Assembly (NCBI GenBank): GCA_902788975.1
Contig: CADAMI010000002.1
Span: 1 to 51,967, forward strand
Direction of reading: 5' to 3'
Origin: an uncultured Erysipelotrichaceae bacterium
GTDB lineage: Bacteria; Bacillota_I; Bacilli_A; RF39; UBA660
Length of the DNA: 51,967 nt
Below are positions 533 through 39,746 of this stretch, piece by piece. The translations under genes and the position numbers were made by a program. The notes below the pieces were generated by a model. The model ran no database searches. It saw nothing but the letters and a program-made list of their open reading frames with translations, and was not told the origin of the DNA. The first letter of the stretch is position 1, and each line of letters starts with the position of its first letter.

Positions 533-599
533 GTTAACTTATTGTTAACAACATTTGTTTGTTTTTAATCTTGACATGCCTTATTTTATATGGTATTAT
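533..599 (+). promoter_or_regulatory. Repeated element copy 1 (divergent) fused to sigma-A promoter
   Basis: GTTAAC-TTATT-GTTAAC-A-ACATTTGTTTG-N9-TTGACA(571-576), 17 nt, TGG-TATTAT(594-599). Confidence 0.7.
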
Positions 600-639
600 T
601 TATTTAGTAAAAAAATATTAGTATGTAGGAGGTAAAGGT

Positions 640-1473
640 ATGGATAAAGATTTCAAATTAGTAGCTAAAATATTTGATGGTAAAAAAGTAAGAACTGTAT
701 GGAGCAAAGAGGAAGAGAAGTTTTATGTGAGTGTTGTTGATATAATTTCAGTACTGACAGATAGTGAGTATCAAATAGCAAGAAACAATTGGAAAATAAT
801 AAAATATAGATTAGTAAAAGAGGGAAATGAAACGGTTACAAATTGTAACCAGTTGAAATTAAAATCGCAAGATGGTAAAATGCGTATGACAGATGTCGTT
901 GACATTGAAGGTATGTTTAGATTAATTGAATCTATTCCATCTAAAAAAGCAGAACCTGTTAAACTTTGGCTTGCTAGACTTGGAAAAGAGAGAATAGATG
1001 AAGAATATGATCCAGAAATCACGATTAATAGAGCACTTGAAGCATATAGAAGAAAAGGTTATTCAGATGATTGGATTAATCAACGATTAAAAACAATAGA
1101 TGCAAGACACGAATTTACAGATGAATTAAAAAATAAAGGAATAGAAAGTAGTAAAGATTTTGCTATATTAACTGATACATTAACCAAAATATGGAGTGGT
1201 TATTCAGTAAAAGAATATAAACAACTTAAAAACTTAAAAAAAGAAAATTTACGAGATAATATGACTAATATGGAACTGGTTCTAAATATGCTTGCTGAAG
1301 TAACATCTACTGAAATATCAAAAAATTCAAGTGAATTTGGATATAATGGCGCATTAAATTCTGTTGAAAAAGGCGAAAAAATTGCTGCTAATACTAGGAA
1401 ACAGATAGAAGAAGAAACTGGCAAAAAGATTGTTACTAATAGTAATAATAAAAGTATTAAACAAATTAAATAA
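640..1473 (+). CDS. Bro-N domain protein (antirepressor-like DNA-binding protein)
   Basis: N-terminal F.GKKVRTVW...YVSVVDII.VLTDS...QLKLKSQDGKMRMTD...IPSKKAEPVKLWL, C-terminal LRDNMT motif; RBS AGGAGG. Confidence 0.85.
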   Translation: MDKDFKLVAKIFDGKKVRTVWSKEEEKFYVSVVDIISVLTDSEYQIARNNWKIIKYRLVKEGNETVTNCNQLKLKSQDGKMRMTDVVDIEGMFRLIESIPSKKAEPVKLWLARLGKERIDEEYDPEITINRALEAYRRKGYSDDWINQRLKTIDARHEFTDELKNKGIESSKDFAILTDTLTKIWSGYSVKEYKQLKNLKKENLRDNMTNMELVLNMLAEVTSTEISKNSSEFGYNGALNSVEKGEKIAANTRKQIEEETGKKIVTNSNNKSIKQIK

Positions 1474-1534
1474 AATGATATTTTTAGTATCTATAGTTAT
1501 GCCGCATTCTGGTAGTTCAAAAGAAGGAAAGTGA

Positions 1535-1876
1535 GTGGATAATATATATAATTTTGATTTATTAAATGATGAAGAAATAAAACTTATTGATGATAATGTT
1601 TTGATTTATAAAGATAATAAATTATATACCTTTATAATAACTAATAAAAGATTATTAGTTTTAGACTATCCAAGTGGATTATATAATTCAATGGAAGACT
1701 TAAGAATATCTGGTAAAATGAATTATATAAGAATGAAAGAAATTATTTTTGAGAGAAATCTTGATGATATTAAGTTAATATCTAATGATAGTGGTAAAAT
1801 AAAGATAAGTTTTATGGATGATAATTTTATAGAATTTAAAAGTGATGATGTTTATAAAGCAATAATTAGAAATTAA
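1535..1876 (+). CDS. Hypothetical protein (possible PH-like fold)
   Basis: 113-aa ORF with RBS AAGGA; IITNKRLL motif reminiscent of bacterial PH domains. Confidence 0.55.
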   Translation: MDNIYNFDLLNDEEIKLIDDNVLIYKDNKLYTFIITNKRLLVLDYPSGLYNSMEDLRISGKMNYIRMKEIIFERNLDDIKLISNDSGKIKISFMDDNFIEFKSDDVYKAIIRN

Positions 1877-1897
1877 TTACATATAAGAGGCAAGAAT

Positions 1898-2023
1898 ATG
1901 AAAGAAATAATTTATAATTATGATTTATTAGATGATGCTTTAGAAATATTAGAGAAAAGTATTGGGGATGCTAAAAGGAAAAATCCAGTATTAGATATGA
2001 TTGAAGCCATAAAGAATATATAA
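1898..2023 (+). pseudogene. 41-codon ORF, probable internally deleted gene remnant
   Basis: RBS GAGG then MKEIIYNYDLLDDALEILEKSIGDAKRKNPVLDMIEAIKNI*. Confidence 0.3.
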
Positions 2024-2121
2024 AAATATGTGGTGATGATACTAGAAGAGCTGAATGGCGATAATTATCATATATTGTAAATATATTTATTTTATTATAT
2101 AATTATAATGAAAGTGAGGAT

Positions 2122-2646
2122 ATGATGAAAAAAGATTTTTGGAGTGAAGCATTGATGCTTTTATGTGTTTTAATATTAGGAGTATGTCTTACAGTTTGGG
2201 CAGATAAAGTTACTACTCTGGTATCTATTTTACTAGGATGCTTGGCAGTTATATATGGAATTAGTGCTTTTATTAGTTATTTTAGAAATCAAGATAGAAT
2301 TATGAATGATCGCATGCAATTTATATTTGGAATAATTGTGTTAGTAATTGGTTTTACCTTAATATTTAAAGTTGATTTCTTAAAAGGATTAATTTCTTTT
2401 GTGGTAGGTATTTATATACTTCTTTCTAGTATACTTAGATTACAAGAGTGTCTTGATATTAAGAAAACATTAAATGTTAAAATGACTTCAGCAATTGTTT
2501 TATCAATACTTGGAATACTTGTCGGTATTTTGTGTATTGCTGGTAAGTTCTTAGTTCCTGATATGATAGTTACATATATTGGAGTTATGTTAATTATTTA
2601 TAGTGTTATTAGTTTTGTTGAATTAATTATTATTAAGAGAAAGTAG
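2122..2646 (+). CDS. HdeD/DUF308-like membrane protein
   Basis: About six hydrophobic helices with G-rich DUF308-type pattern. Confidence 0.7.
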   Translation: MMKKDFWSEALMLLCVLILGVCLTVWADKVTTLVSILLGCLAVIYGISAFISYFRNQDRIMNDRMQFIFGIIVLVIGFTLIFKVDFLKGLISFVVGIYILLSSILRLQECLDIKKTLNVKMTSAIVLSILGILVGILCIAGKFLVPDMIVTYIGVMLIIYSVISFVELIIIKRK

Positions 2647-2652
2647 GCTTAT

Positions 2653-4248
2653 ATGAAAAAGAAAATATGGATTGTTAGAATACTAATTATTATATTATTT
2701 GCATTTTTACTATATTATGTAACATTACCCGCTATTAATTTACATAATCCAGGATTTTATGCTTATTTGTTTATGATATTTATTTGTTATCTTATAACAT
2801 CTGGGATTAGTTTGTTTGATGGAGAAAGAGTTATTAATAAAGTAAAAAGATTACCAAGAAATACATTAATAGTTGTAAGTAGTGTTACAACAGTTATTGT
2901 ATTAATTATTTTGGTAAATGTAATATCTAGTCCATTATTTAATTCCAAGTCATGGGCTAGTAGAATTACGATTCAAGATGATACAAGTTTTACAGATGAT
3001 ATTAAAGAAGTAGATTTCAATCAAGTACCATTATTAGATAAGGATTCTAGTCAAAAACTAGGAGATAGAGTAATGGGACAGATGAGTGAACTTGTTAGTC
3101 AGTATTATGTATCAGATTTATATACCCAAATTAATTATAATAATGAAATAGTTAGGGTTACACCAATTGAATATAATGGATTTATTAAATGGTTAAATAA
3201 TAAAAAACATGGAGTACTTGGATATATTAAAGTTAATTCAGTAACGGGAGCAAGTGAATTAGTTAAATTGAATAAGGGTATGAAATATATGCCTAGTGCT
3301 TATATTTTTAAAGATTTAGATAGAGCTCTTAGATTTAAGTATCCAACAACAATCTTCGGAACAATTAGTTTTGAAATTGATAATGAAGGAAATCCTTATT
3401 GGGTTGTACCAACTATTAAATATACAGGCGTTGGGTTAAAAGAAGAAATAAATGGAATTGTTTTATTAGATCCAGTTACTGGTAAGACTAATAAATATAA
3501 TATTGACGAAGTACCTAAATGGGTTGACCAAGTGTATTCAGCAAGTTTAATAATTGAACAAATAGATGACTGGGGAATGTATAAGAATGGATTCTTAAAT
3601 TCAGTATTTAGTCAAAATGGGGTAGTACAAACAACTGAAGGATACAACTACTTGGTTAAAGATGATGATGTTTATATGTATACGGGTATTACTTCGGTAT
3701 CTACGGATGAATCTAATATTGGGTTTGTACTTACGAATATGCGCACTAAAGAAACTAATTTTTATGGCGTTCCAGGAGCTGAAGAATATTCAGCAATGGC
3801 ATCAGCTGAAGGTCAAGTTCAACAAATGAAATATATTTCTTCATTCCCATTATTAATTAATTTAAATAATAGACCAACATATTTAATGAGTTTAAAAGAT
3901 AATGCTGGACTTGTTAAAATGTATGCTTTTGTCGATGTAACTGATTATCAAAAAGTAGTTGTCACTGATAGTACATTAGGTATAGATGTAGCTGCTAATA
4001 ACTATTTGAATAATGCTAATTTAGGTAGTGGAGTTGCTAATAATAGTAAAGAAATTATTGTTAAAGCAATAAGTACAGCAATTATTGATGGGAATACTTA
4101 TTATTATATTATCGACAATGATAATCAAAAATATAAAGTATCTATAAAAATTAATAGTAGTCTATTACCATTTATTAATGTTGGTGATAAGATAGAAGTA
4201 AGTTATAATAAGATATCTGATGTTATCGATATAGTTAAGATAAAATAG
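2653..4248 (+). CDS. Conserved membrane protein with large extracellular domain (function unknown)
   Basis: Three N-terminal TM helices, then conserved-looking motifs GAEEYSAMASAEG and LKDNAGLVKMYAFV. Confidence 0.75.
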   Translation: MKKKIWIVRILIIILFAFLLYYVTLPAINLHNPGFYAYLFMIFICYLITSGISLFDGERVINKVKRLPRNTLIVVSSVTTVIVLIILVNVISSPLFNSKSWASRITIQDDTSFTDDIKEVDFNQVPLLDKDSSQKLGDRVMGQMSELVSQYYVSDLYTQINYNNEIVRVTPIEYNGFIKWLNNKKHGVLGYIKVNSVTGASELVKLNKGMKYMPSAYIFKDLDRALRFKYPTTIFGTISFEIDNEGNPYWVVPTIKYTGVGLKEEINGIVLLDPVTGKTNKYNIDEVPKWVDQVYSASLIIEQIDDWGMYKNGFLNSVFSQNGVVQTTEGYNYLVKDDDVYMYTGITSVSTDESNIGFVLTNMRTKETNFYGVPGAEEYSAMASAEGQVQQMKYISSFPLLINLNNRPTYLMSLKDNAGLVKMYAFVDVTDYQKVVVTDSTLGIDVAANNYLNNANLGSGVANNSKEIIVKAISTAIIDGNTYYYIIDNDNQKYKVSIKINSSLLPFINVGDKIEVSYNKISDVIDIVKIK

Positions 4249-4278
4249 AATTTAAGATATTTCTTAAGTTCTTTTTTT
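4247..4278 (+). terminator. Rho-independent terminator
   Basis: AGAATTTAAGA-TATT-TCTTAAGTTCT followed by T run. Confidence 0.8.
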
Positions 4279-4345
4279 GTTAACTATAAGTTAATACATT
4301 TGTTTGAATTTATTATTGACAATATATGTTACTTATTGATATAAT
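4279..4345 (+). promoter_or_regulatory. Repeated element copy 2 fused to sigma-A promoter
   Basis: GTTAACTATAAGTTAATACATTTGTTTGAATTTATTA-TTGACA(4316-4321), 18 nt, TGA-TATAAT(4340-4345); 4280-4321 identical to 33868-33909. Confidence 0.85.
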
Positions 4346-4351
4346 TGTTAT

Positions 4352-4723
4352 ATGAAGAATGTAGATATAATGTTAGATAATTTAAGTAAATCAAAATTTA
4401 GAAGTAGTTTTCACTTAAATAATAAAATGAAAAATTATGTTAAAGAAAAAGGCTTTGATACGATAAGAAAACATGCATATGAAATTATAAGTAATAGATT
4501 AAAACCTGAATATATATCAAATGATGGTAAACAAACACCAATGAGACAAGTACATCCAGTGTTTATAGCGCAACATGCATGTGCTTGCTGTTGTCGTGGT
4601 TGTTTAGAAAAGTGGCATAAAATATCTAGAGGTAGAGAATTAAGTGATGGTGAGATAAATTACGTTGTAGATATTCTTATGACTTGGATTAAGAGAGAAT
4701 GTAATTATAGGGATGGTGATTAG
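4352..4723 (+). CDS. DUF4186 family protein
   Basis: Motifs NDGKQTPM, HPVFIAQHA, CCCRGCLEKWH. Confidence 0.9.
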   Translation: MKNVDIMLDNLSKSKFRSSFHLNNKMKNYVKEKGFDTIRKHAYEIISNRLKPEYISNDGKQTPMRQVHPVFIAQHACACCCRGCLEKWHKISRGRELSDGEINYVVDILMTWIKRECNYRDGD

Positions 4724-5689
4724 ATGAAAAATGAGATAATGATTATTGATGAGAAAACAATTGAGGATAAAATATATGTTGTTCGTGGTAAGCAAGTTAT
4801 GATCGATAGTGATTTGGCTGCAATCTACGGATATGAAACGAAGGATTTTAATAGACAAGTCAGAAATAATATTGAGCGATTTGATGATGATTTTATGTTT
4901 CAACTAACTGATGATGAAGTAAACGAATTATCGAGGTGCAAAAAATTCACCACGATGCAGACAAAAGGTATAAAAGGTGGAAGAGTCTATAATCCGTATG
5001 TATTTACCGAACAAGGCGTTTATATGTTAATGACGGTATTAAGGGGAGAACTAGCTATAAAGCAAAGCAAGGCACTCATAAGAGTGTTTAAAAAAATGAA
5101 AGATTATATAATAGAAACAAATAAGTTAACTGGTTATAATAATGTAATCGATTTGGCATTACAAACTAAGGAAAATACTGATGATATAAAAATTATTAAA
5201 AAAGAATTAAATACTATTCATAAATTTTTAGATATTGGCTATGATAAGGAAATTATAATATTAAATGGACAACAGGTTGAAGCAAATTTGGCTTATAAAA
5301 GAATATATAGTTTAGCTAAAGAAAGTATTTATATTGTTGATGATTATATAAGTTTAAAAACATTAGTTTTGTTAAAAGATATAGATAAAAAGGTTAAGAT
5401 AACTATATTTAGCGATAATGTAAGTAAAAAATTACATGCGATAGAGTATAATGATTTTGTAAATGAATATGATTATTTAAATATTTCTTTTAAAAGTACT
5501 AATAATAAGTTTCATGATAGATATATTATAATTGATTATGGTAAAAGTAATGAAAAAATATTTCATTGTGGTTCTTCGTCAAAAGATTCAGGTAAAAAAA
5601 TTACAACAATTATGGAAATAAATGATAAGAAATTATATTTTGAACCAATTGATGATTTATTTAAGAATGATGAACTTATATTAACATAA
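4724..5689 (+). CDS. ORF6N domain protein with C-terminal PLD-like domain
   Basis: KIYVVRGKQVMIDSDLAAIYG...FMFQLT...PYVFTEQGVYML (ORF6N); C-terminal IVDDY...HDRYIIID...HCGSSSK. Confidence 0.85.
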   Translation: MKNEIMIIDEKTIEDKIYVVRGKQVMIDSDLAAIYGYETKDFNRQVRNNIERFDDDFMFQLTDDEVNELSRCKKFTTMQTKGIKGGRVYNPYVFTEQGVYMLMTVLRGELAIKQSKALIRVFKKMKDYIIETNKLTGYNNVIDLALQTKENTDDIKIIKKELNTIHKFLDIGYDKEIIILNGQQVEANLAYKRIYSLAKESIYIVDDYISLKTLVLLKDIDKKVKITIFSDNVSKKLHAIEYNDFVNEYDYLNISFKSTNNKFHDRYIIIDYGKSNEKIFHCGSSSKDSGKKITTIMEINDKKLYFEPIDDLFKNDELILT

Positions 5690-5704
5690 TGGAGGAAATG
5701 AAGA

Positions 5705-6112
5705 ATGGATAATCAAAAAGAAATAGTTTACTTATTATCTTTGATGATGGGTATTGGTGGTATGAATAATAATCCTTATAATGACTTCTTAATATTTGGT
5801 GATGAGAAATTATTAAATTATTCAGTTAGCTTAGTTTTAGAAATAGATAATCTTTTAGAGTAAGGATATATGAAAGAAGTGATAACTGAATTAATTAATA
5901 AGAGTAATTTTTGTGAAAATGATTTAGAATTATCTAGTGAAGAAGGAGTTATATTAAAAGAACATGCATATCATATTTTAGATATTAGATATGAATTATT
6001 TATGGAAAGTAAAAAGGAAGAAAAAGTAAAAAAATACTTGTTTAATAAGCAAAAATATGCTAATATAATATTAGTTTTTGAAAGGCGTATAATAGAAGTA
6101 GTAATAAATTGA
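5705..6112 (+). pseudogene. Hypothetical gene split by an in-frame TAA at 5861-5863
   Basis: RBS GGAGG at 5691, ORF 5705..5863 continues in frame (TAA GGA TAT ATG) into 5870..6112. Confidence 0.45.
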
Positions 6113-6298
6113 ATATTTATAGAGAGAATATGGTTGGTGAAAATATTTGATATGAAATTTATGAACTTGTCTATTTAGCTGATTTTTATCCGCAGAAATG
6201 CGTTAAAGTTTAGAGTGTATAACAATAGTTATAAAGTAAGGTGGTACCGCGATTATTCGTCCTTATATTTATAACTATTTTTTTATGAGGAGGATACT
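6110..6298 (+). promoter_or_regulatory. T-box riboswitch leader of leuS (Leu specifier)
   Basis: T-box AAGGTGGTACCGCG at 6238-6251 with CGTCCTT partner; specifier GAA-CTT (Leu) at 6166-6168; stem III TATAAC/GTTATA. Confidence 0.92.
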
Positions 6299-8698
6299 AT
6301 GTATAATTTTACAAAAATTGAAAAAAAATGGCAGAAGTATTGGGAAGAAAATAAGACATTTAAAGCTATTAATGGAGGAGAAAAAGAACCTTATTATATA
6401 TTGGTTGAGTTTCCATATCCATCAGGGGCTGGATTACATGTAGGGCACGTACGTAGTTATACAGCGCAAGATGCTTTGGCTAGAGTTAAAAGAATGCAGG
6501 GATATAATGTGTTATTTCCAATGGGATGGGATGCTTTTGGGGCACCTGCAGAGCAGTATGCAATAAAGAATCATATACATCCAAAGGAAGCGGTTATGGA
6601 AAATATTAAAACATTTAAGGGACAAATGTTATCTTTAGGATTTTCATTTGACTGGGATCGTGAGTTTTCAACGACAGATCCAGAGTATTATAAATGGACG
6701 CAATGGCAATTCTTACAATTTTATAAACATGGACTAGCTTATAAAGCTAAGAAGGATGTCAATTGGTGTCCTAACTGCAAGATAGTTTTATCAAATGAAG
6801 ATGCGGCTGGTGGAGTATGTGAAAGATGTGGTAGTAAAGTAGTTCAAAAAGAGAAAAGTCAATGGATGCTTAAAATGAGTGATTATGCTGAAGATTTGAT
6901 TAAAGGACTTGAAGATACAAACTTTGCTGATAGAGTTAAATTAGGCCAAATTAATTGGATAGGGAAATCTAATGGAGCAGAAGTTGATTTTACAATAGCG
7001 GAAACGGGTGATAAATTAACAGTTTACACGACAAGATGCGATACGTTATTTGGAGTTACCTTTATGGTTTTAGCGCCTGAACATCCAATGCTTGAAAAAT
7101 TAAATAATGTTATTACTAATATGGATGAAGTAAAGAAATATCAAGAATTTGCTAAAACTAAGAGTGCTTTTGAAAGAACAGAGGTTAATAAGGATAAAAC
7201 TGGTGTTAAACTTGAAGGCATTACTGTTAAAAATCCACTTAATGGTAGAGATGTAGCGGTATTTATATCTGATTATGTTATGATGGGATATGGAACAGGT
7301 GCTATTATGGCTGTTCCAGCTCATGACCAAAGGGATTATGAATTTGCAAAAAAATTTGGATTAGAAATTATTCCAGTAATTAAAGGCGGGGATATATCTA
7401 AAGAAGCCTATACTGGGGATGGCGAGATGATTAACTCTGATTTCTTGAATGGCTTTACTAATAAAAAAGATTCAATAAAAAGAATGCTCGAGTACTTAGA
7501 AGAGCATAAATTAGGTAGAGCTAAGGTTAATTATAAACTTCAGGATTGGATATTCTCAAGACAAAGATTTTGGGGAGAACCAATTCCAATGATATATTGT
7601 GATAAATGTGGATGGCAACCAGTACCTGACGAAGATTTACCATTACTTTTACCTGATGTTGCAGAGTATGAGCCAACTGATGATGGGGAAAGTCCACTTG
7701 CAAAAATTGATTCATTTGTTAATACAACTTGTCCAAAGTGTGGAGGAAAAGCTAAAAGGGAAACAGATACAATGCCTAACTGGGCAGGATCTAGTTGGTA
7801 TTTCTTAAGATATATGGACCCACATAATGAGCATGAATTCGCATCAATGGATGCGATGAAATATTGGAAAAAAGTTGATTGGTATAATGGTGGAATGGAA
7901 CATACAGCAAGACATTTATTGTATGCAAGATTCTGGGTACAATTCTTATACAACGTTGGTTTAGTACCATCAAAAGAAATGATTTGGACAAGAGTTAGTC
8001 ATGGAATGGTACTTGGCTCTGATAATCAAAAAATGAGTAAATCTAAAGGAAATGTAATTAATCCAGATGAAATAGTTAGTGATTATGGGGCAGATGTTTT
8101 GAGAATATATGAAATGTTTATGGGAGATTATACACAAGATGCGCCATGGAATACTAATTCTTTAAGAGGATGTAAAAGATTTATCGATAGGATATATCGT
8201 TTAAAAGAAAAATTAAATAATAAAGATGGATATACAAAAGAACTTGAAGCAATTCAGAATAAAACTATTAAAGGTATTAGCTATGATTTAGAACATATGG
8301 GATATAACACATATATATCTAAATTAATGATTTTAACGAATGCTTATGAAGAAAAGGAAAGTATTACTAAAGAAGATTACAGATTATTATTAATCTTATT
8401 AAATCCAGTAGCTCCACATTTAACGGAAGAATTAAATCAAGAAATGGGTTATGACTTAATATCAAATGCGACATGGCCTAAATGTGATGAGACTAAAATT
8501 GTTGAAGAAGAAAAAGAAATTGCCGTGCAAGTAAATGGTAAAGTTAGAGCAACAATTAATATTTCAGTTAATGAAGATGAAGAATTAATAAAAGACAAGG
8601 CTCTTTCATGTGAAAATGTTAAGAAACATTTAGAGGGACTACAAATTTTAAAAATAATGGTAATAAAAAATAAAATAGTAACGATAGTTGCTAAATAA
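6299..8698 (+). CDS. leuS: Leucine--tRNA ligase
   Basis: FPYPSG.GLHVGH (HIGH), GTGAIMAVPAHDQRD editing motif, KMSKS; Leu T-box upstream. Confidence 0.98.
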   Translation: MYNFTKIEKKWQKYWEENKTFKAINGGEKEPYYILVEFPYPSGAGLHVGHVRSYTAQDALARVKRMQGYNVLFPMGWDAFGAPAEQYAIKNHIHPKEAVMENIKTFKGQMLSLGFSFDWDREFSTTDPEYYKWTQWQFLQFYKHGLAYKAKKDVNWCPNCKIVLSNEDAAGGVCERCGSKVVQKEKSQWMLKMSDYAEDLIKGLEDTNFADRVKLGQINWIGKSNGAEVDFTIAETGDKLTVYTTRCDTLFGVTFMVLAPEHPMLEKLNNVITNMDEVKKYQEFAKTKSAFERTEVNKDKTGVKLEGITVKNPLNGRDVAVFISDYVMMGYGTGAIMAVPAHDQRDYEFAKKFGLEIIPVIKGGDISKEAYTGDGEMINSDFLNGFTNKKDSIKRMLEYLEEHKLGRAKVNYKLQDWIFSRQRFWGEPIPMIYCDKCGWQPVPDEDLPLLLPDVAEYEPTDDGESPLAKIDSFVNTTCPKCGGKAKRETDTMPNWAGSSWYFLRYMDPHNEHEFASMDAMKYWKKVDWYNGGMEHTARHLLYARFWVQFLYNVGLVPSKEMIWTRVSHGMVLGSDNQKMSKSKGNVINPDEIVSDYGADVLRIYEMFMGDYTQDAPWNTNSLRGCKRFIDRIYRLKEKLNNKDGYTKELEAIQNKTIKGISYDLEHMGYNTYISKLMILTNAYEEKESITKEDYRLLLILLNPVAPHLTEELNQEMGYDLISNATWPKCDETKIVEEEKEIAVQVNGKVRATINISVNEDEELIKDKALSCENVKKHLEGLQILKIMVIKNKIVTIVAK

Positions 8699-8707
8699 TT
8701 ATTTTAT

Positions 8708-24542: not shown

Positions 24543-24618
24543 GGGCTGTTAGCTCAGTTGGTAGAGCAACTGACTCTTAATCAGTGGGTCTAGGGTTCGA
24601 ATCCCTAACAGCCCACCA
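24543..24618 (+). tRNA. tRNA-Lys(CTT)
   Basis: Cloverleaf GGGCTGT/ACAGCCC, anticodon arm ACTGA-CTCTTAA-TCAGT, TTCGAA T-loop, CCA end. Confidence 0.97.
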
Positions 24619-24694
24619 TTTAATTATTAAATAGTTTTAAAAATGCTTGATATCTCATAAATTATATGATATAATCAATTAGCGAACACAAAAT

Positions 24695-24771
<77 letters not shown>

Positions 24772-24777
24772 TTTTGT

Positions 24778-24854
24778 GGCCCGTTGGTGAAGTGGTTCAA
24801 CACACATGCCTTTCACGCATGCATTCATGGGTTCAAATCCCGTACGGGTCACCA
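24778..24854 (+). tRNA. tRNA-Glu(TTC)
   Basis: Anticodon arm CATGC-CTTTCAC-GCATG, CCA end; terminator at about 24868-24887. Confidence 0.96.
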
Positions 24855-31396: not shown

Positions 31397-31398
31397 TT

Positions 31399-33828
31399 GT
31401 GATTAGAATAGAAAAACTTAATAAATATTATAATCGTCATAAGAAAAATCAAATTCATGTCATTAATGATACTTCTTTAGAACTTCCTGATAAAGGATTA
31501 GTCGCTTTACTTGGACCAAGTGGATGCGGTAAAACGACATTACTTAATGCAATAGGTGGTTTGGATAAAGCTAATAATGGTAAGATATTTATTGATGATA
31601 AAAAGATTACGACGTTTAACACTTATAAAAAAGATAAATTACGTAATTTAAAGATAGGATATATCTTTCAAGATTATAAGTTAATTGATAACAAGAGTGT
31701 TTATGATAATGTGGCAATGGTTCTAAGAATGATTGGTATCAAAGATAAAAATGAAGTTAAGAAGAGAGTCGAATATATCTTAGAAAGAGTTGGAATATAT
31801 AGATACCGTTATAGACCTTGTGGGATGCTATCGGGGGGAGAAAGACAGAGAGTTGGTATAGCTAGAGCATTAGTTAAAAATCCTGATATAATTTTGGCAG
31901 ATGAACCAACAGGTAATTTGGATAGTAAAAATACAATTGAAATAATGAATATTATTAAATCAATATCTAAAGATAAACTAGTAATATTAGTAACCCATGA
32001 AGTAGAACTAGCTAAATTTTATGCAACAAGAATCATTGAAGTAGTAGATGGAACTGTTGAAAAAGATTATCAAAATAAAAATAAAGATAATTTAGATTAT
32101 CGAATCGATAATAAGTTTTATCTAAAAGATTTTAAATATCATGAAGAAAATAAAGATAATAATATTAATATAGATATGTATAGTGATACTAAAGAGAAAC
32201 TTAATTTAGTAATAATATTTAAAAATGGTAATTTGTATATTAAGAATAAAGATAATGATAAAGTAGAAGTAATCGATAGTAGTTCTAATATAGAGTTAAT
32301 TAATGATAATTATAAACAATTAGATAAAAGTGTTTATGAAAAATATTCTTTTGATTTTGATAAGATTATCAATAATAATATTAAATTAAAATATTCATCA
32401 ATATTTAATATATTTACAATATTTAGTAATGGTTTTAAAAAAGTATTTGATTATTCTTTTGTAAAAAAATTACTATTAATCGGATTCTTCTTATCATCAT
32501 TATTTGTTACTTATTCAGTAAGTAATTTACTTGGAGTGGCGACAGTTAATGATAAAGATTTTATTAAAACAAATAAGAATTATTTGATGTTAGAAAGCAA
32601 GAAAGTATCAGTGAGTGACTATAATAAATATTCAGAAATGGATGGTATTAATTATATTCTTCCGGGGGATAGTAATGCAAACTTTAATATTGATACGAAG
32701 GGCTACTATCAGACTGAAAACGTAGGACTAATTATTGGTGGATCAATTGCAAGTACTAGTATGATTAGTAAAGATAATTTGGTATATGGAAGAATGCCTG
32801 AAAATGAATATGAAATCGTTATCGATAAAATGACTTATAAGAGAGCAGAGAATATTAAGATGGTCGGTTTATATGATATAGAAAGAATGCTTGATACAAA
32901 AGTTTATTTAGGTAATCATCTTCTTGAATATACAATTGTTGGTATAACTGATTTGGAAAGTCCATCAATATATGTAGATAATAATCAATTTATAAATATT
33001 ATTGATAATAGTTCTAGTGATGGTATGTTTTCATATAGAGAAGAAAGAGCTAATGGCGGTAGTGTATATGATTACACACTATATAAAGATAAGATAAGTA
33101 TTGTTAAAGGACGTACACCAGATAATGATTATGAAGTAATTGTTAATGAAAACTTAAAAGATACTTTTAAATTAGATAAATATATCGATGATTTAAAAGT
33201 TAATGGTGAAAAATTAAAAGTTGTTGGTTATTATACTTCTAGTGATGAAATTAATAGTTATTTTGTAAATACAAATACTAATAAATATGAATTAATTGGT
33301 AATAGTCAAAATTTGGTTATATATGCCAGTGATAAGGATAAAACAATTAGAGATTTTAAAGAACTAGATAGAAAGGTAATCGACGTGTATGATGCTGATA
33401 AAAAGGCTTATTTAAAGGAAAATAAGGAAAGTATGAATGCTAGTTTAATTGTAGCAGCTATTATGTTAGGTATATCTTTAGTTGAAATAATTTTGATGAC
33501 GCGTTCATCATTCTTATCAAGAATTAAAGAAGTAGGTATATATAGAGCTATTGGCGTTAAGAAAAGTGATATATATAAGATGTTTATGGGTGAAGCATTC
33601 GCGATTACAACATTAACAAGTATTCCAGGAGTATTATTTATGGGATACTGTATCAATGTTATTTCGGATATTAAGTATATAAGTAGAAATTATATTATGA
33701 ACTGGGGAGTAATTCTTTTATGTATAGTTATTATATATGTATTTAATATTGTTGTTTCCTTAATACCAGTATTTAACACGATGAGAAAAACACCTGCTCA
33801 AATTCTTGCTAGACATGATTTAGACTAA
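31399..33828 (+). CDS. Fused ABC transporter ATPase/permease (MacB/FtsX-like)
   Basis: GPSGCGKTT, LSGGERQR, ADEPTGNLD, RIKEVGIYRAIG FtsX motif. Confidence 0.92.
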   Translation: MIRIEKLNKYYNRHKKNQIHVINDTSLELPDKGLVALLGPSGCGKTTLLNAIGGLDKANNGKIFIDDKKITTFNTYKKDKLRNLKIGYIFQDYKLIDNKSVYDNVAMVLRMIGIKDKNEVKKRVEYILERVGIYRYRYRPCGMLSGGERQRVGIARALVKNPDIILADEPTGNLDSKNTIEIMNIIKSISKDKLVILVTHEVELAKFYATRIIEVVDGTVEKDYQNKNKDNLDYRIDNKFYLKDFKYHEENKDNNINIDMYSDTKEKLNLVIIFKNGNLYIKNKDNDKVEVIDSSSNIELINDNYKQLDKSVYEKYSFDFDKIINNNIKLKYSSIFNIFTIFSNGFKKVFDYSFVKKLLLIGFFLSSLFVTYSVSNLLGVATVNDKDFIKTNKNYLMLESKKVSVSDYNKYSEMDGINYILPGDSNANFNIDTKGYYQTENVGLIIGGSIASTSMISKDNLVYGRMPENEYEIVIDKMTYKRAENIKMVGLYDIERMLDTKVYLGNHLLEYTIVGITDLESPSIYVDNNQFINIIDNSSSDGMFSYREERANGGSVYDYTLYKDKISIVKGRTPDNDYEVIVNENLKDTFKLDKYIDDLKVNGEKLKVVGYYTSSDEINSYFVNTNTNKYELIGNSQNLVIYASDKDKTIRDFKELDRKVIDVYDADKKAYLKENKESMNASLIVAAIMLGISLVEIILMTRSSFLSRIKEVGIYRAIGVKKSDIYKMFMGEAFAITTLTSIPGVLFMGYCINVISDIKYISRNYIMNWGVILLCIVIIYVFNIVVSLIPVFNTMRKTPAQILARHDLD

Positions 33829-33831
33829 AAT

Positions 33832-33869
33832 AAAATACTAGATTTATAAAAAAGATCTAGTATTTTTTT
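33832..33869 (+). terminator. Terminator after ABC operon
   Basis: AAAATACTAGATTT...AGATCTAGTATTTT plus T run. Confidence 0.8.
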
Positions 33870-33933
33870 AACTATAAGTTAATACATTTGTTTGAATTTA
33901 TTATTGACATTAATAATGATGTTTTGTTATAAT
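33868..33933 (+). promoter_or_regulatory. Repeated element copy 3 fused to promoter of toxin-like locus A
   Basis: 42-nt identity with 4280-4321; TTGACA(33904-33909), 18 nt, TGT-TATAAT(33928-33933). Confidence 0.85.
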
Positions 33934-33996
33934 ATTATTTAGGAATATTTGATAGTTGGGTGATGCCTCCAATCTTAATAGATTGGAGGTGATGCG

Positions 33997-34089
33997 ATGA
34001 GTACCAAAGAATTAAAAAACTTGCTTAATATTTTACTTATCATCGTAATATTACTTATTGCATTACTATTCGTAGTGCTCATGAAATAA
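33997..34089 (+). CDS. Putative type I toxin peptide A (30 aa, single TM)
   Basis: MSTKELKNLLNILLIIVILLIALLFVVLMK; RBS GGAGGTG hidden in hairpin CCTCCAATC/GATTGGAGG; 5'-3' long-range pairing of the transcript. Confidence 0.8.
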   Translation: MSTKELKNLLNILLIIVILLIALLFVVLMK

Positions 34090-34203
34090 AAGATTGCCTA
34101 AATAAGCTTAGTTAGGCAATACCCAAAAAAATATTTTGAGGCATTACTCAACAGCGAAAAGTCAAGTATTCCTCTTTTTTAATATATGAAGTTTCCTTCA
34201 TCT
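34086..34203 (-). ncRNA. Putative antisense antitoxin RNA A
   Basis: Minus-strand promoter TTGTTT(34238-34233)-17-TATAAT(34215-34210); terminator hairpin 34093-34120 followed by U run on minus strand. Confidence 0.65.
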
Positions 34204-34316
34204 ATATACATTATATAATATAATAGATAAAAAAACAAGATTAAAAGTAAGATAAATTATTTAAATGCTCGTAATTTGTTTAAAATAATGGTATAATTAC
34301 TAACGAGGAAGATATT

Positions 34317-36116
34317 ATGGATATAAATAAGATAAGAAATTTCTGTATTATTGCACATATTGATCATGGTAAGAGTACTTTAGCTGATCGTATACTTGAA
34401 TATACGGGTGCGATTGATAAAAGAGAAATGAAAGATCAAATATTAGATAATATGGATTTAGAAAGAGAAAGAGGAATTACAATTAAATTAAATGCAGTTA
34501 GGTTAAATTATAAAGATTATATTCTTAATTTAATTGATACGCCAGGACATGTCGATTTTACTTACGAAGTAAGTAGAAGTATGGCGGCATGTGAAGGGGC
34601 TATTTTAATCGTAGATGCTGCTCAAGGAATTGAAGCTCAAACTCTATCAAATATATATTTAGCAATGGAAAATGATTTAGAGATAATACCAGTTATTAAT
34701 AAAATAGATTTACCTAGTGCTGATATTGAAAAAAGAATAGACGAACTTAATAAGATGTTCGGTTTTAAGAGAGAAGAAATTTTACTTACATCAGCAAAGA
34801 CTGGTGAGGGTATTCCAGAACTGGTTGATGCGATTGTCGAAAGAATTCCTAGTCCGAAAATAGAATATAACGATGAGAAATTAAGATGTTTAATATTTGA
34901 TAGTTATTTTGATTCTTATTTAGGGGTCGTTTCATTAATTAGAGTTGTTAGTGGTAAAGTATCAATGGGTGATAATATTAAGATGTTTACGACGGGTGCT
35001 AATTATGAAGTAACAGAGATAGGTTATCATACTCCAAAAAAAGAAAAAGTTAGTACTTTAAGTGCGGGTGAAGTAGGATTCTTGTCAGCAAGTATAAAAT
35101 CGATTGATAGTGTACGTGTAGGCGATACGATAACATTAAATAATAATCCTTGTTTGGTGGGATTACCTGGTTATAAACAATTGAAACCAATGGTATTTTG
35201 TGGAATATATCCAATTGACAGTAAGAAATATCCTAATTTAAGAGAAGCTTTAGAAAAATTAAAACTAAATGATGCGTCATTATCATTTGAACCCGAGACT
35301 TCACAGACTTTAGGTTTTGGCTTTAGAACTGGTTTTTTAGGATTGCTTCATTTAGATATTATTACGGAACGTATTGAAAGAGAATTTGGGGTAGATATTA
35401 TTGCCACAGCTCCATCGGTTATTTATGAAATAACCTTAACTGATGGAAGTGTAATCTATGTTGATAATCCATCAGAATTTCCACCTAAGGTAAGAATTAG
35501 TATGATAAAAGAACCATACATTAGAACTAATATCTATGTACCAAATGAATATATTGGTTCTATAATGGAACTTTGTCAAGATAAAAGAGGAACTTATATA
35601 AATACTGACTATATTGATACGACTAGAGTAAATATTCATTATGAGATACCTTTATCAGAAATCGTATATGATTTTTTTGATAAACTTAAGAGTTATACGA
35701 AGGGATATGCCTCTTTTGACTATGAGATAATTGGTTATAAGATAAGTGATCTTGTTAAGATGGATGTTATGTTAAATGGGGAAATTGTCGATGCATTATC
35801 AGTTATAGTTCATAAAGATTTTGCTTATAAGAGAGGAAGAGTAATTGTCGATAATTTAAAAGAAATTATTCCTAGACAATTATTTGAAGTACCAGTCCAA
35901 GCGGTAATTGGTAGTAAAGTAATTGCTCGTAGTGATATAAAAGCGATGAGAAAAGATGTCTTAGCTAAATGTTATGGTGGCGATATTACTAGAAAAAGAA
36001 AACTTTTGGAAAAACAAAAAGAAGGTAAGAAAAAAATGAAGACTATCGGTAAAGTAGATATACCTAAAGAAGCCTTCTTATCAGTATTAAAAGCAACAGA
36101 AATTAAGAAAGATTAA
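34317..36116 (+). CDS. lepA: Elongation factor 4
   Basis: [50 protein letters not shown]. Confidence 0.98.
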
Positions 36117-36150
36117 AAGAGAATTGAGTATGTTATCAATTCTCTTATTT
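36117..36150 (+). terminator. Terminator after lepA
   Basis: AAGAGAATTGA...TCAATTCTCTT. Confidence 0.75.
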
Positions 36151-36204
36151 TAATACATTTGTTTGATTTTATTATTGACTTTTCATTAATGCGTTTGATA
36201 TAAT
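36150..36204 (+). promoter_or_regulatory. Repeated element copy 4 (left palindrome arm missing) fused to promoter of toxin-like locus B
   Basis: TTAATACATTTGTTTGATTTTATTA-TTGACT(36175-36180), 18 nt, TGA-TATAAT(36199-36204). Confidence 0.8.
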
Positions 36205-36274
36205 TATATTGGAACATTTAGTGTGAGTGTCTGCCTTGAGTCGTTCTTACGAATAGATTGGAGGCTTGGTCAAT

Positions 36275-36367
36275 ATGAAAAAACGTGAATACAATATCAG
36301 GTTTTTAAGGTATATTTCGATCATTTTATTTCTGATTATCATTTTGATAATTGTTATAAAAAAATGA
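36275..36367 (+). CDS. Putative type I toxin peptide B (30 aa, single TM)
   Basis: MKKREYNIRFLRYISIILFLIIILIIVIKK; RBS GGAGG in hairpin; same RNA architecture as locus A. Confidence 0.8.
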   Translation: MKKREYNIRFLRYISIILFLIIILIIVIKK

Positions 36368-36484
36368 CATCCACTTTACTATGGATGTCCCCGTTTTATG
36401 CCATATGGCATTTAATTAGGTAGGCATTCACAAGGAAAACTGAATGTTCCACCTTTTTTAATATATGCAAGAACTCTTGCTTAC
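36358..36484 (-). ncRNA. Putative antisense antitoxin RNA B
   Basis: Minus-strand promoter TTGACA(36519-36514)-17-TATATT(36496-36491) with extended TG; terminator GACATCCA/TGGATGTC (36366-36389) plus U run on minus strand. Confidence 0.7.
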
Positions 36485-36578
36485 ATACTTAATATAGCAT
36501 ATTTATATTTTATTGTCAAAAGATTATTTACATATTTATAGATGATGATATAATAATTAATAATTATTGGGGGTAGTT

Positions 36579-37802
36579 ATGCATAATGTTGATGAAATGA
36601 AATTATATGAATTATATTATATCGTATATGTTTATAGTATATATGAAGATGATGATATTGTTCCTTATGATATGGAATATGTATGGCATAAAATTAATGA
36701 TTATTATTACCAAGAAAATGATATATTATTAGATATCAATAAAGAAGATGATAGAAGTATTTTATTTAATTGGATGAAAGAGAAATGTAGATATCAATTA
36801 CTAGATGAATTAATGGTTCATATGTTTAATAGATTTATTAATATAGAAGATAATGGCATAGATAATCGAGATGAATTCTTTATTAATAATATAGATATGA
36901 TGGAAAAAATTATGGGTACTGGTAATTATGATATGAAAATGGATGATAAAAATATATCGGAATTAAGTAAAGATAAAGTAATTACTTTAGTAAAAGAGAT
37001 ACTTTTAGAAATTGATCCATCTAGTGAATGGTTAAGAATATATGAAGAAGCCATTGATAAGAATAAAATTATTTATTTAAATGAATTAGATAAAAAAGGG
37101 ATAATTGATTTAAAGAAAGAATTAGTCGTTGATTCATTAAAATATATTGATAACTCTTGTTTGACTCTTGAGAATGGTGAGAAATATATATTCTTAAATT
37201 ATAAAGGGGATATTAGTGATGTATCTACGACAATTCATGAATTTACTCATTATGTTAGTAAATATAATCATAATGAAAAAGAGTCACCAATATTACGAGA
37301 ATTTCCAGCCATATTTTTTGAATTATATGCATTAGATTATTTAAAAGAAATAGGTTATGATGAAAATGATATAAAATTAGTTAATCAACATAGAGTAGCT
37401 GATACTTATATGGCAACGATGGAATCAAGAATATTTATTTATTATTTAAAAACGATAATGAATAATGGGGTAATTAATGAAGAAATAGACAGAGAATTAA
37501 TTAGAGATAAATATTATTTGTTTAATGATGTAAGAAAAAATTGTGATAATTGTATTAGAGATTTAATAATTAATCCGTATGCATTTTTTGAAATATATCC
37601 ATATGTTATTGGTAATTATTTAGCAGATAATGCTATAATAAAACTAAAAAATGATAGACAATTATTAGGGTTTATAAAATATATGAATGATAATTTATAT
37701 AGGATAAATCCATATGATGTATTTAATATCCTTGGTTGTGGAGATGTTGATTTAGTAAATACCAATGAAGAAAAACAAAAAGTAAAAAAAAGAAATAAAT
37801 AG
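36579..37802 (+). CDS. Hypothetical HExxH protein (M3 peptidase-like motif)
   Basis: TTIHEFTH...LREFPAIFFE...YPYVIG; basic C-terminal tail. Confidence 0.6.
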   Translation: MHNVDEMKLYELYYIVYVYSIYEDDDIVPYDMEYVWHKINDYYYQENDILLDINKEDDRSILFNWMKEKCRYQLLDELMVHMFNRFINIEDNGIDNRDEFFINNIDMMEKIMGTGNYDMKMDDKNISELSKDKVITLVKEILLEIDPSSEWLRIYEEAIDKNKIIYLNELDKKGIIDLKKELVVDSLKYIDNSCLTLENGEKYIFLNYKGDISDVSTTIHEFTHYVSKYNHNEKESPILREFPAIFFELYALDYLKEIGYDENDIKLVNQHRVADTYMATMESRIFIYYLKTIMNNGVINEEIDRELIRDKYYLFNDVRKNCDNCIRDLIINPYAFFEIYPYVIGNYLADNAIIKLKNDRQLLGFIKYMNDNLYRINPYDVFNILGCGDVDLVNTNEEKQKVKKRNK

Positions 37803-37929
37803 CTATATTTAAACTTTTGTTTTGTCTTTGTTTAACTGGAGTTCTTTTGTTCTAAGAAAAAATGAAGAAAAAATTCTATACAAAAAAAATATTTTATTGT
37901 ATAATTATTTAGCGAGTGGAGTTGGTCGT

Positions 37930-39342
37930 ATGAATTTACCTAATATGTTAGATGCTAAAAAGAGAACTAAAGAAGAGTCTAAAATATTATATGATGATTA
38001 TAATATTAATGAAATAAATGATCTTGGTAAAGATAAAAAATATCTTATATTAACATATGGATGCCAGATGAATGTTCATGATAGTGAATATATATCTGGT
38101 ATTATGGAAGATATAGGATATACCAAAACAGAAGATATGAATAAGGCTGATGTTATAATTGTTAATACTTGTGCGATAAGAGAAAATGCTCACAATAAAG
38201 CTGAAGGTATGCTTGGTAGAATTAAACATCTAAAAGAAACTAAAGAAGACATAATTGTAATATTCTGTGGATGTATGGCTCAAGAAGAAGGGCTTGTTAA
38301 TAAGATAAAAGATTATAAATGGATTGATATAATATGCGGAACTCATAATTATCATAAAATACCAGAATATTTATATGAGTATATGGATAAAGGGAAAGTA
38401 TGTGAAGTTTATAGCATAGAAGGTAATGTTATTGAAAATTTACCAGTTATAAGAGATTCTAAATATACAGCTTGGGTAAATATTCAATATGGATGTGATA
38501 AATTCTGTACTTATTGTATAGTTCCATATACAAGAGGAAAACAAAGAAGTAGAAAAAGTGAAGATATTATAGATGAAGTGAGAGAACTTTATAATAATGG
38601 TTATCAAGAAGTAACATTACTTGGACAAAATGTTAATGCTTATGGAAAAGACTTTAATAATGATTACGATTTTGCTGATTTATTAGGTGAAGTTAGTCAG
38701 ACAGGAATACCACGTATTAGATTTGTAACTAGTCATCCATGGGATTTTACAGATAAGATGGTTGAAGTTATTAGTAAATGTGATAATATTATGCCATATA
38801 TTCATCTTCCTATTCAATCTGGATCTGATCGTATTCTTAAACTAATGGGAAGAAAATATACCATAAAAGAATACTTAGAAATAGTAAGAAAACTTAGAGA
38901 AAAGATTCCTAATGTAAGTATTACAACCGATATTATTGTTGGCTTTCCAGGAGAAACTGAAGAAGATTTTCAAAAGACTTTAGATATTGTTAATCAAGTT
39001 AAATATGACTTGGCGTATACATTTATTTTTAGTCCAAGAGAGGGAACACCAGCTGCTAAAATGGAAGATAATACTCCGATGGAAGAAAAAAAAGAAAGAC
39101 TAGCCAGACTTAATGAACTAATTAATAAATATGCTTTGGAATCTAATCAGAAGATGTTAAATAAAACATATGATGTTTTAATACTTGGAGAATCAGATAA
39201 GGATGATAAGTATATGGGATATACCGATAATATGAAATTAGTTAATGTTAAATGTGATAAAGAATTAGTTGGTAAAATTATTCCCGTTAAGATTACAGGA
39301 GTTAAGACTTGGAGCTTAGATGGTGAAGTAAATGATAAATAG
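37930..39342 (+). CDS. miaB: tRNA methylthiotransferase MiaB
   Basis: TYGCQMNVHDSE, NTCAIRENA, radical SAM CDKFCTYC, TRAM domain; start at ATG 37930. Confidence 0.96.
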   Translation: MNLPNMLDAKKRTKEESKILYDDYNINEINDLGKDKKYLILTYGCQMNVHDSEYISGIMEDIGYTKTEDMNKADVIIVNTCAIRENAHNKAEGMLGRIKHLKETKEDIIVIFCGCMAQEEGLVNKIKDYKWIDIICGTHNYHKIPEYLYEYMDKGKVCEVYSIEGNVIENLPVIRDSKYTAWVNIQYGCDKFCTYCIVPYTRGKQRSRKSEDIIDEVRELYNNGYQEVTLLGQNVNAYGKDFNNDYDFADLLGEVSQTGIPRIRFVTSHPWDFTDKMVEVISKCDNIMPYIHLPIQSGSDRILKLMGRKYTIKEYLEIVRKLREKIPNVSITTDIIVGFPGETEEDFQKTLDIVNQVKYDLAYTFIFSPREGTPAAKMEDNTPMEEKKERLARLNELINKYALESNQKMLNKTYDVLILGESDKDDKYMGYTDNMKLVNVKCDKELVGKIIPVKITGVKTWSLDGEVNDK

Positions 39343-39661
39343 TAGTTTAGAAGAATTATTTAATACAATAGAAAATTCAACTTTATATAAAGAGTATTTA
39401 AAAATGAAAGATATTTTAAGTAAAGATAAGGAAATTAAATTATTGATTGATGAAATTAAAGAATTAGAAAAACAAGCTACTTATTTAGAAAATATCGGAG
39501 ATAATAAATATAAAGATATTGATGAAGAAATAAAAAGAAAAGCTGATGTATTAAATAATAAACAAGTATATCAAGAATATTTAAATAAGATGGAAGAATT
39601 TAATAATGAATTAGCTATTTCATCTAAAATGATAGAGAAATATGTTGAAGAAAAGGTTTAA
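39332..39661 (+). CDS. YlbF/YmcA (RicA-like) family protein
   Basis: Helical 109-aa protein overlapping miaB as in the Bacillus miaB-ymcA operon. Confidence 0.7.
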   Translation: MINSSLEELFNTIENSTLYKEYLKMKDILSKDKEIKLLIDEIKELEKQATYLENIGDNKYKDIDEEIKRKADVLNNKQVYQEYLNKMEEFNNELAISSKMIEKYVEEKV

Positions 39662-39679
39662 TGATTTAAATCTTTTTTT

Positions 39680-39746
39680 GTTAACTATATGTTAATACAT
39701 TTGTTTGTGATTATTATTGACATATGTAGTATTTATTTGTTATAAT
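39680..39746 (+). promoter_or_regulatory. Repeated element copy 5 fused to promoter of LPD3-like gene
   Basis: GTTAACTATATGTTAATACATTTGTTTGTGATTATTA-TTGACA(39717-39722), 18 nt, TGT-TATAAT(39741-39746); abuts terminator 39651-39679. Confidence 0.85.

Follow-up and report, generated by a model that had tools for sequence, protein, structure and literature searches.

What might it mean when a run of some 42 nucleotides (nt), closing with a −35 promoter hexamer, recurs before genes that are unrelated to each other? The question is raised by a stretch of 51,967 nt (the window), positions 1 to 51,967 of contig CADAMI010000002.1 in assembly GCA_902788975.1, from an uncultured Erysipelotrichaceae bacterium (UBA660) whose lineage is one of uncultured small-genome gut Bacilli, the DNA of the window being matched in bovine and sheep gut metagenomes. 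Five copies of this element are present there, all on the plus strand. Our answer is that the 14-mer within it is probably a lineage-specific LexA box, with the promoters of the element being under SOS control, and that such control is most likely a lineage-specific twist on a known theme and not a new kind of system. The source genome is termed G000 here and the contig holding the window C2; the assembly amounts to 1.23 Mb with 26.6% G+C and is about 71% complete. Those genomes of relatives, congeners included, that are named below bear labels from G001 to G013.

The element is laid out as TTAAC-N5-GTTAA, AATAC-ATTT-GTTTG, N9 and TTGACA, the box being A(C/T)AAC-ATTT-GTTTG in copies of a second, Bro-N type. 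The copies in the window are as follows.

534–599, plus strand: copy 1 (type 2); palindrome TTAACTTATTGTTAA at 534–548, LexA-like box ACAACATTTGTTTG at 548–561, −35 TTGACA at 571–576, −10 TATTAT at 594–599; drives the Bro-N gene at 640–1473
4280–4345, plus strand: copy 2; palindrome at 4280–4294, box AATACATTTGTTTG at 4293–4306, −35 at 4316–4321, −10 at 4340–4345; preceded by a terminator hairpin at 4240–4279
33868–33933, plus strand: copy 3; palindrome at 33868–33882, box at 33881–33894, −35 at 33904–33909, −10 at 33928–33933
36150–36204, plus strand: copy 4, without the left arm; box at 36152–36165, −35 TTGACT at 36175–36180, −10 at 36199–36204; preceded by the lepA terminator at 36117–36146
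39681–39746, plus strand: copy 5; palindrome at 39681–39695, box at 39694–39707, −35 at 39717–39722, −10 at 39741–39746

Exact matches in the window to the 11-mer ACATTTGTTTG fall at 551, 4296, 33884, 36155 and 39697, which is where an earlier, sequence-only reading of this DNA had placed the five copies. With one mismatch allowed a search for this 11-mer is weak by itself (shuffles average 2.0 matches, and 7 in 100 have 5 or more), but the 25-nt pattern ACATTTGTTTG-N9-TTGAC identifies the same five sites and had no match in any of 100 shuffles. Several particulars of that reading were likewise borne out: positions 4280–4321 and 33868–33909 are identical at 42 of 42 nt; copy 4 has lost the left palindrome arm, with its 14-mer, N9 and −35 all in place; copies 2 to 5 have an 18-nt spacer and TGn-TATAAT; and a hairpin with a T-run stands directly upstream of each of these four (z from −4.5 to −5.8). 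A simple terminator scan flagged copy 4 alone, since the stems of the other terminators are A+T-rich. The assertion that similarity stops after the −35 was too strict. Spacer and −10 are far less conserved, but they are still recognizably related between some copies, for instance by TTATTGATATAAT in the copies at 4296 and on C11. Sigma-70 scores for copies 2 to 5 are 12/12, 12/12, 11/12 and 12/12, the best matches of their regions, with copy 1 at 11/12. Judged by its sequence, the element makes a short but strong promoter of the sigma-A kind.

The LexA boxes of the genus and the box of the element

The sequence-only reading had likened the 14-mer to part of the Gram-positive LexA site and had supposed an undescribed, stress-induced regulon of toxin and defence genes. 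How does this stand against the SOS genes themselves? G000 has a lexA gene, at C15:20710–21369 on the minus strand (PF01726, 68.9 bits; TIGR00498 equivalog, 208.5 bits with a cut-off of 110.95). Its recA promoter reads CAAACGATTGTTTG-N9-TTGACA and its lexA promoter has AAACAAATGTTTGACA together with a second box, AAACAAATGTTC, the sequence ACATTTGTTTA occurring twice upstream of lexA; the genus box at the two genes is YAAAC-N4-GTTTG. The LexA part of the supposition would have fallen if lexA had been missing or if DNA-repair promoters had lacked the box; lexA is there and the box stands at both lexA and recA, and the comparative data add strength. The element would then belong to a lineage-specific version of the SOS regulon, and the word ‘undescribed’ has to go.

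Congeners extend the point. In 10 of 11 recA promoters a CAAAC-N4-GTTYR box is followed by exactly N9 and then TTGACA; the eleventh, that of G005, has AGAACAAATGTATG-N8-TTGACA, and bears an ATAC/GTAT half-site. At lexA, TAAAC-N4-GTTTG is joined directly to the −35 in each of the 11 congeners, and a third box at the lexA locus, CATAC-N4-GTTTG, is shared by G000 and 6 of the 11, its spacer varying while its half-sites stay constant. This third box separates the −35 from the −10 in the promoter of a small gene that is transcribed away from lexA (C15:21500–21620 in G000, where the opposite reading is CAAAC-N4-GTATG), an arrangement which we take to resemble lexA/yneA of Bacillus subtilis. The element thus shares with the SOS promoters of its genus both the recA geometry of box, N9 and TTGACA and an accepted half-site, ATAC, and the position of the putative operator is compatible with repression.

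The box can also be followed into promoters that are homologous by virtue of the genes behind them. The 13-mer ATACATTTGTTTG occupies the LexA slot abutting the −10 both in a homologous toxin promoter of a congener (G003:C27) and at L149, a locus from a metagenome-assembled genome with a Bro-N homologue. Among 33 promoters of Bro-N-like and toxin genes that were anchored on the right half-site and the −10 only, all from outside G000 and one of them from congener G003, the left half-site is GAAC in 23, AAAC in 6, ATAC in 2 and something else in 2; in the G000 background ATAC makes up 1 of 808. A weight matrix built from 32 boxes of other genera gives the element box 9.28 bits, a score reached by just 98 of 2,456,134 positions in the genome, and gives G000's own recA box 11.78 and its lexA boxes 9.31 and 5.04. 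All 13 occurrences of ATAC-N4-GTTTG in G000 are intergenic in a genome that is 85.6% open reading frame, versus 1/12, 0/6, 1/7, 0/12 and 1/6 for controls with altered half-site or spacing (3/43 in total); the six that lie outside the element are at the lexA-divergent promoter, before RhuM-Fic, at C23:9206 and in three IS200 tnpA promoters. Upstream of Bro-N homologues in metagenome-assembled genomes, AAC-N4-GTT is found within 120 nt at 28 of 78 loci, the figure for control windows being 49 of 527. Relative to the start codon these boxes range from −37 to −91 (26 of 29 within −37 to −48), and most of them overlap the −10. Another box upstream of a −35 is that of the DUF4186 promoter of G010, CAAACAAATGTACT-N8-TTGACT. 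Across the 13 element copies that could be aligned (10 from G000 and one each from G004, G006 and G007) the box is altered in two only, C7 having a changed N4 spacer and C49 a GTTC, while the N9 and the palindrome spacer drift.

A matrix made from strict AAC-N4-GTT boxes was dropped in favour of the anchor statistics and the other-genera matrix, for it is unfair to the element in penalizing T at the third position by construction. The counts behind a genome-wide enrichment ratio for the 4-mers in front of N4-GTTTG are too small for it to be informative.

Several considerations weigh against LexA control of the element. The core that defines Gram-positive LexA sites, AAC-N4-GTT, is present in two of the ten G000 copies (C2:551 and C58), the other eight having TAC-N4-GTT, so that strict membership among LexA operators is unproven, LexA binding being a prediction from sequence. 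ATAC is a minority half-site (the 2 of 33 above) and the strict matrix, by its construction, gives the element box no more than 8 bits. The box of the element lies upstream of the −35, whereas most boxes in the homologous promoters of other genera overlap the −10. It covers 14 of the 42 conserved bases, and the palindrome arms are conserved equally well; the palindrome was found in none of the 78 upstream regions of Bro-N homologues and was not seen at recA or lexA of G000 and congeners. The 42/42 identity could be due in part to recent copying or gene conversion instead of selection. Copy counts and regulon lists are moreover minimum figures, given the incompleteness of the genome.

Copies, genes and orthologous loci

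A scan of all of G000 adds at least five copies to those of the window, at C11:986 (minus), C28:5796 (minus), C58:2776 (plus), C49:1908 (minus) and C7:12240 (plus), making ten. They head five type I toxin-antitoxin-like modules, three paralogous Bro-N genes, one DUF4186 plus ORF6N pair and one LPD3 gene. The units in the window other than the element itself are these.

640–1473, plus strand: Bro-N domain protein of 277 amino acids (aa) (Pfam Bro-N), paralogous to the genes on C11 and C58
4352–5689, plus strand: DUF4186 gene (4352–4723) and ORF6N-domain gene (4724–5689) (Pfam)
33934–34245, plus strand: toxin-antitoxin-like module 1; hairpin in the 5′ untranslated region (UTR) hiding the ribosome-binding site, 30-aa hydrophobic peptide at 33997–34089, hairpin past the stop codon, second terminator
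36205–36480, plus strand: divergent toxin-like module 2; 30-aa peptide at 36275–36367, UTR fold weak (z = −1.5)
39757–40452, plus strand: stand-alone LPD3-domain protein of 231 aa (Pfam)

Pfam thus upholds Bro-N, DUF4186, ORF6N and LPD3 as named in the sequence-only reading; its labels ‘PLD’ and ‘RNase’, for the ORF6N and LPD3 proteins, were not confirmed. The C-terminus of the ORF6N protein has a weak NCBIfam match to VPA1262_N_dom and nothing more. NCBIfam has no family for the Bro-N proteins and does not name them ‘DinD’; one source calls a homologue ‘phage antirepressor’. The Bro-N paralogue on C58 is frameshifted and interrupted by an IS200/IS605 element. Homologues of the LPD3 protein in G012 and G002 are part of a very large polyvalent open reading frame located elsewhere. 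Non-coding sequence 3′ of the LPD3 gene (window 40650–40740) still matches coding sequence of that reading frame, and the gene in G000 therefore looks like a fragment cut from such a gene.

The toxin modules that the element heads are about 380 nt long. In each the ribosome-binding site is masked by a hairpin (z = −4.0), the encoded peptide is hydrophobic and 30–31 aa in length, and two hairpins and a convergent promoter for a presumed antisense RNA follow. For module 1 this RNA would run on the minus strand over about 34090–34225, as predicted from the promoter and terminator. Module 1 is matched by paralogues within G000 itself and by homologues throughout the family. The module has no match in Rfam and its peptides none in Pfam or NCBIfam; no RNA runs matching window 33700–36700 were found, which is evidence in neither direction. 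Toxin-module matches are present in 129 of 201 family genomes, many to the 3′ part only. In other genera the homology begins at the −10, the promoter being TTGATT..AGAACAAATGTTTG-N-TATAAT, with AGAACAAATGTTTG abutting the −10. Inspection by eye puts this at about 11 of 17 loci, a strict anchor at 7 of 17, and two congeners (G003:C27, G013:C12) have ATACATTTGTT(T)G in that slot. G000 has toxin copies with a classic AGAACAAAAGTTTG box abutting the −10 as well (C20:5980–6280, C38:1670–1990, C45:360–670), so that one genome holds two promoter architectures for a single toxin family. A further copy of the module, C62:203–407, goes with this classic-box group. The family, unclassified and widespread in these bacteria, is probably LexA-controlled.

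Other genes of G000 have boxes without the element. Canonical ones precede an ORF6N protein (C48:3027), an ORF6N plus PemK pair (C21:11149), priA (C62:2597) and a CdiA_C-like protein of 141 aa (C28:9357), the last again as box-N9-TTGACA, and a weaker canonical box is upstream of an MvaI/BcnI nuclease gene. With boxes at these further toxin and defence-type genes, the predicted stress-induced regulon fits the genome at large. An ATAC-type LexA-like box stands before a RhuM+Fic protein at C47:5040. The tnpA promoters of IS200-like elements (Y1 transposase) at C58:3588, C49:8648 and C54:236 have CAAAC-ATAT-GTAT between a TTTACA −35 and a TATATAAT −10, and this transposase, too, may be SOS-controlled. 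Promoters at C18:12498 and C31:2508 share TTGAC(T/A)-AAA(A/G)CAAACAAA(T/C)GTGCTA, with a CAAAC-N4-GTGC box between −35 and −10; the genes behind them, of 323 and 206 aa, belong to no Pfam family.

How far beyond G000 does the composite element extend? Allowing three mismatches, a 32-nt pattern found it in 3 of 41 relatives' genomes (8 sites in G000, 1 in G006 and 1 in G008); the G008 match, with no recognizable gene downstream, was set aside as probably due to chance. An exact shorter pattern found it in 1 of 401 family genomes, G000 alone, the sample holding just two congeners. Within-genus BLAST revealed diverged copies at G007:C90 (a toxin module, type 2), G004:C16 (a truncated module) and G006:C62 (before Bro-N). 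By these searches the composite element is found in this genus only and is amplified in G000.

Orthologous loci give a view of its arrival. Between ymcA and an alkylation-repair gene, the locus of the LPD3 gene, about 1045 nt in G000 correspond to gaps of 70 nt in G001, 10 nt in G009 and 1 nt in G003, and the left junction, at copy 5, is exactly T-run|GTTAAC. The site between a 531-aa gene and DUF4186 is empty in G009, while in G001 it is filled by an orthologue of DUF4186 (78% identity), preceded by no more than a T-run and ctgtttatgTTATAAT; some 58 nt, element plus spacer, therefore constitute an indel in G000 before a resident gene. The left junction is at T-run|GTTAAC in both of the loci that can be aligned, with the right junctions sharing no motif, and since the element is an indel at two orthologous loci the promoter has been reused. 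Toxin modules vary in presence between congeners. At the site between the ABC genes and lepA, G006 has the antitoxin half of a module only, with a junction that is not at the motif, and it has no second module after lepA.

Comparison with metagenomes concerned contigs only, from four studies. These bridge copies 4 and 5 unchanged, and all of them end at copy 3, as contigs would at a repeat; they contain no well-supported joint at the borders of the element, whether circular or of an empty site, the joints listed having short sides of 21–33 letters and probably coming from other organisms or repeats. In three of the four runs (X5, X13 and X11) contigs branch immediately past the −35 of copy 3 (window 33909) into other downstream sequences, a hint that the populations have additional copies or variants of the element outside the assembly.

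Unconnected with the element, Rfam identifies a T-box leader at 6079–6267, upstream of a 799-aa gene at 6299–8698, and a cluster of three tRNAs at 24543–24851, its sole matches in the window.

Weighing the explanations

Why should the left palindrome be kept so well? Its arms are conserved and its spacer is free in 12 of the 13 aligned copies, which argues for a function; perhaps a second protein binds there, or the palindrome assists LexA. Another thought is that a different dedicated regulator reads TTAAC-N5-GTTAA, as a palindrome or as a direct repeat TTAAY-N6-TTAAY with an 11-bp period, the LexA-like 14-mer being an ancestral relic. G000 does have candidates, an XRE-HTH plus S24 protein (C6:37486–38148) and its only OmpR-type response regulator, on C19; the −10-proximal LexA boxes have decayed in those toxin promoters that bear the element. 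N5 is also the commonest spacing of these arms in G000 (17 sites, with 0–6 for N2–N9), and 8 of the 10 N5 sites outside the element are intergenic, versus 1 of 19 sites spaced otherwise and 7 of 48 controls with permuted arms. However, there is no enrichment in 13 congeners (49 sites versus 64 for the reversed control), and the non-element sites are a mixed set, several of them just before ribosome-binding sites or promoters (pncA-pncB, secDF, dnaG) and several conserved for other reasons, one being probably inside a structured RNA and one fixed before dnaG; this offsets the intergenic bias, and a second regulon was not adopted. No copy is adjoined by a regulator gene, the palindrome is dispensed with in part by copy 4 and by the C58 and C7 copies, in which the G of the right arm is gone, and the 14-mer is under a LexA-like constraint of its own. 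We hold a different regulator to be unlikely. Of the known sites with which the palindrome may be compared, namely the PrfA box (TTAAC-N4-GTTAA), PhoP direct repeats, TnrA/GlnR sites and Type I/IIB restriction sites, none is known to fit the N5 spacing. For the record, non-element palindromes are at window 49618–49632 and, in G000, at C3:19591, C6:8050, C14:8381, C14:16247, C22:16142, C35:11138 and C36:3997.

Youth instead of function could in principle account for the conservation, the element then being a strong promoter lately duplicated by recombination or gene conversion with no operator role. That it was found in one genus only, and amplified in G000 alone, is in keeping with this, as is identity of 96–100% over 42–50 nt before unrelated genes: C2:4275–4324 has 96% identity to 33863–33912 over 50 nt, C11:961–1007 is 96% identical over 47 nt, and with DUF4186, toxin peptide and Bro-N genes downstream these copies come under the definition of putative mobile promoters, for which an identity of 80% or more must extend over 50 nt or more before non-paralogous genes (PMC3575422). 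Yet the copy at C2:33884 and that on C28 are alike at 42 of 42 nt in the element and at 82% over the toxin module, divergent copies and those of congeners keep arms, box and −35 while spacers drift, and the box matches the LexA sites of the genus in sequence and position, so we find mere duplication quite unlikely. About as unlikely is the notion that the module of about 60 bp is a propagating ‘mobile SOS promoter’, its palindrome being bound by a dedicated LexA co-repressor or by a recombination or insertion factor that targets the 3′ side of terminator T-runs, wiring downstream genes into the DNA-damage response. Least probable of all, and very much so, is the other proposal of the sequence-only reading, that the element is the core-site end of cassettes inserted behind terminators by a tyrosine recombinase. 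Presence and absence of units do vary as it foresaw, with the LPD3 unit missing from G001, G009 and G003, the DUF4186/ORF6N site empty in G009 and the toxin modules inconstant, and the left junction is at the motif in two loci. But the units share no second end, inverted or direct, and no target-site duplication is seen; what was gained before the resident DUF4186 gene is promoter only, and the half module of G006 has its junction off the motif. Just two Xer-like tyrosine recombinases, neither dedicated, were found in the incomplete genome, and the metagenome contigs pass through copies 4 and 5 without a supported border joint.

On the LexA reading, then, what would happen in the cell? As long as the DNA is intact, LexA would sit at about −45 to −58, on the docking region of the RNA polymerase alpha subunits, and the promoter would be off. 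On DNA damage, RecA-stimulated self-cleavage of LexA would free transcription of the genes downstream: small membrane toxins of type I modules, ‘antirepressor’-like Bro-N proteins, DUF4186 with ORF6N, and LPD3. The module would have arisen within the genus and then have been copied before unrelated genes by promoter reuse, at least ten promoters thereby joining an SOS regulon already rich in genes for ORF6N, RhuM-Fic, PemK and CdiA_C-like proteins and IS200 transposase. One possible route is that toxin modules land behind terminators and that a deletion between the TGnTATAAT of the module and that of the next gene then fuses the SOS promoter to the neighbour; the toxin-less copy of G004 would be an intermediate on it.

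Should LexA indeed bind, a ruminant-gut lineage would have an SOS regulon dominated not by repair genes but by toxins and phage-type regulators, i.e. type I toxins, Bro-N, ORF6N, RhuM-Fic, PemK, CdiA_C-like proteins and IS200 transposase. It would also provide a dated case of a regulon growing by the copying of one promoter-operator module, with the empty promoter still visible in a sister species, and the ATAC half-site could join SOS motif models for these organisms. Should LexA not bind, the element marks another regulator of toxin-like genes.

Known systems

Induction of type I toxins in the SOS response has its classic examples in Escherichia coli, tisB/istR-1, symE/symR and dinQ/agrB. 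The modules here are akin to these in having a small hydrophobic toxin, an antisense RNA and a LexA box in the toxin promoter, all as predicted features; they differ in toxin and RNA family, which is unclassified, in their hosts, uncultured small-genome gut Bacilli, and in having two LexA-box positions within one genome. In its overlap with the 3′ end of the toxin message the predicted antisense RNA resembles RatA of the Bacillus txpA/RatA pair. The Bro-N genes bring to mind E. coli dinD, a LexA-regulated gene of Bro-N type, the likeness being a Bro-N protein under (here predicted) SOS control, with no family assigned by NCBIfam in the present case. In the literature consulted on LexA and type I toxins in Firmicutes, on DUF4186 and on Bro-N/ORF6N, with most subscription journals and supplementary files being outside its scope, there was no description of the composite element, nor of LexA control of the type I toxin, DUF4186 and Bro-N/ORF6N families in such bacteria.

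For the box itself the reference is the ‘Cheo box’ of Gram-positive LexA (DinR), with the consensus GAAC-N4-GTTC/T (PMC4234289). As in Cheo-box promoters such as those of recA in Bacillus and Clostridium, there is a 14-bp inverted repeat with an N4 spacer and a GTTT or GTTC right half, in a genome with lexA; unlike them, the left half is ATAC and not GAAC or AAAC in eight of ten copies, and the box is fused to a conserved palindrome in a 42-nt unit that is repeated before unrelated accessory genes. That LexA may act at a poorly conserved site beside other sequence, with an accessory factor stabilizing its binding, has a precedent in phage GIL01, whose composite operator combines dinBox1 with a non-canonical half-site, dinBox1b, and is aided by gp7 (PMC4551915). 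By comparison, no gp7-like partner is identified for the present element, and its extra motif is N5-spaced with no recognizable LexA half-site arrangement. The closest parallel to the manner of its spread is with the putative mobile promoters, or promoter reuse, of Nijveen, Matus-Garcia and van Passel (PMC3575422), near-identical upstream sequences before unrelated coding sequences of one genome with no known mobile element attached. What sets the present case apart is that the reused piece has identifiable regulatory content, a LexA-type box plus −35, and that its arrival can be dated, the orthologous promoter being empty in a congener, to a time within the history of the genus.

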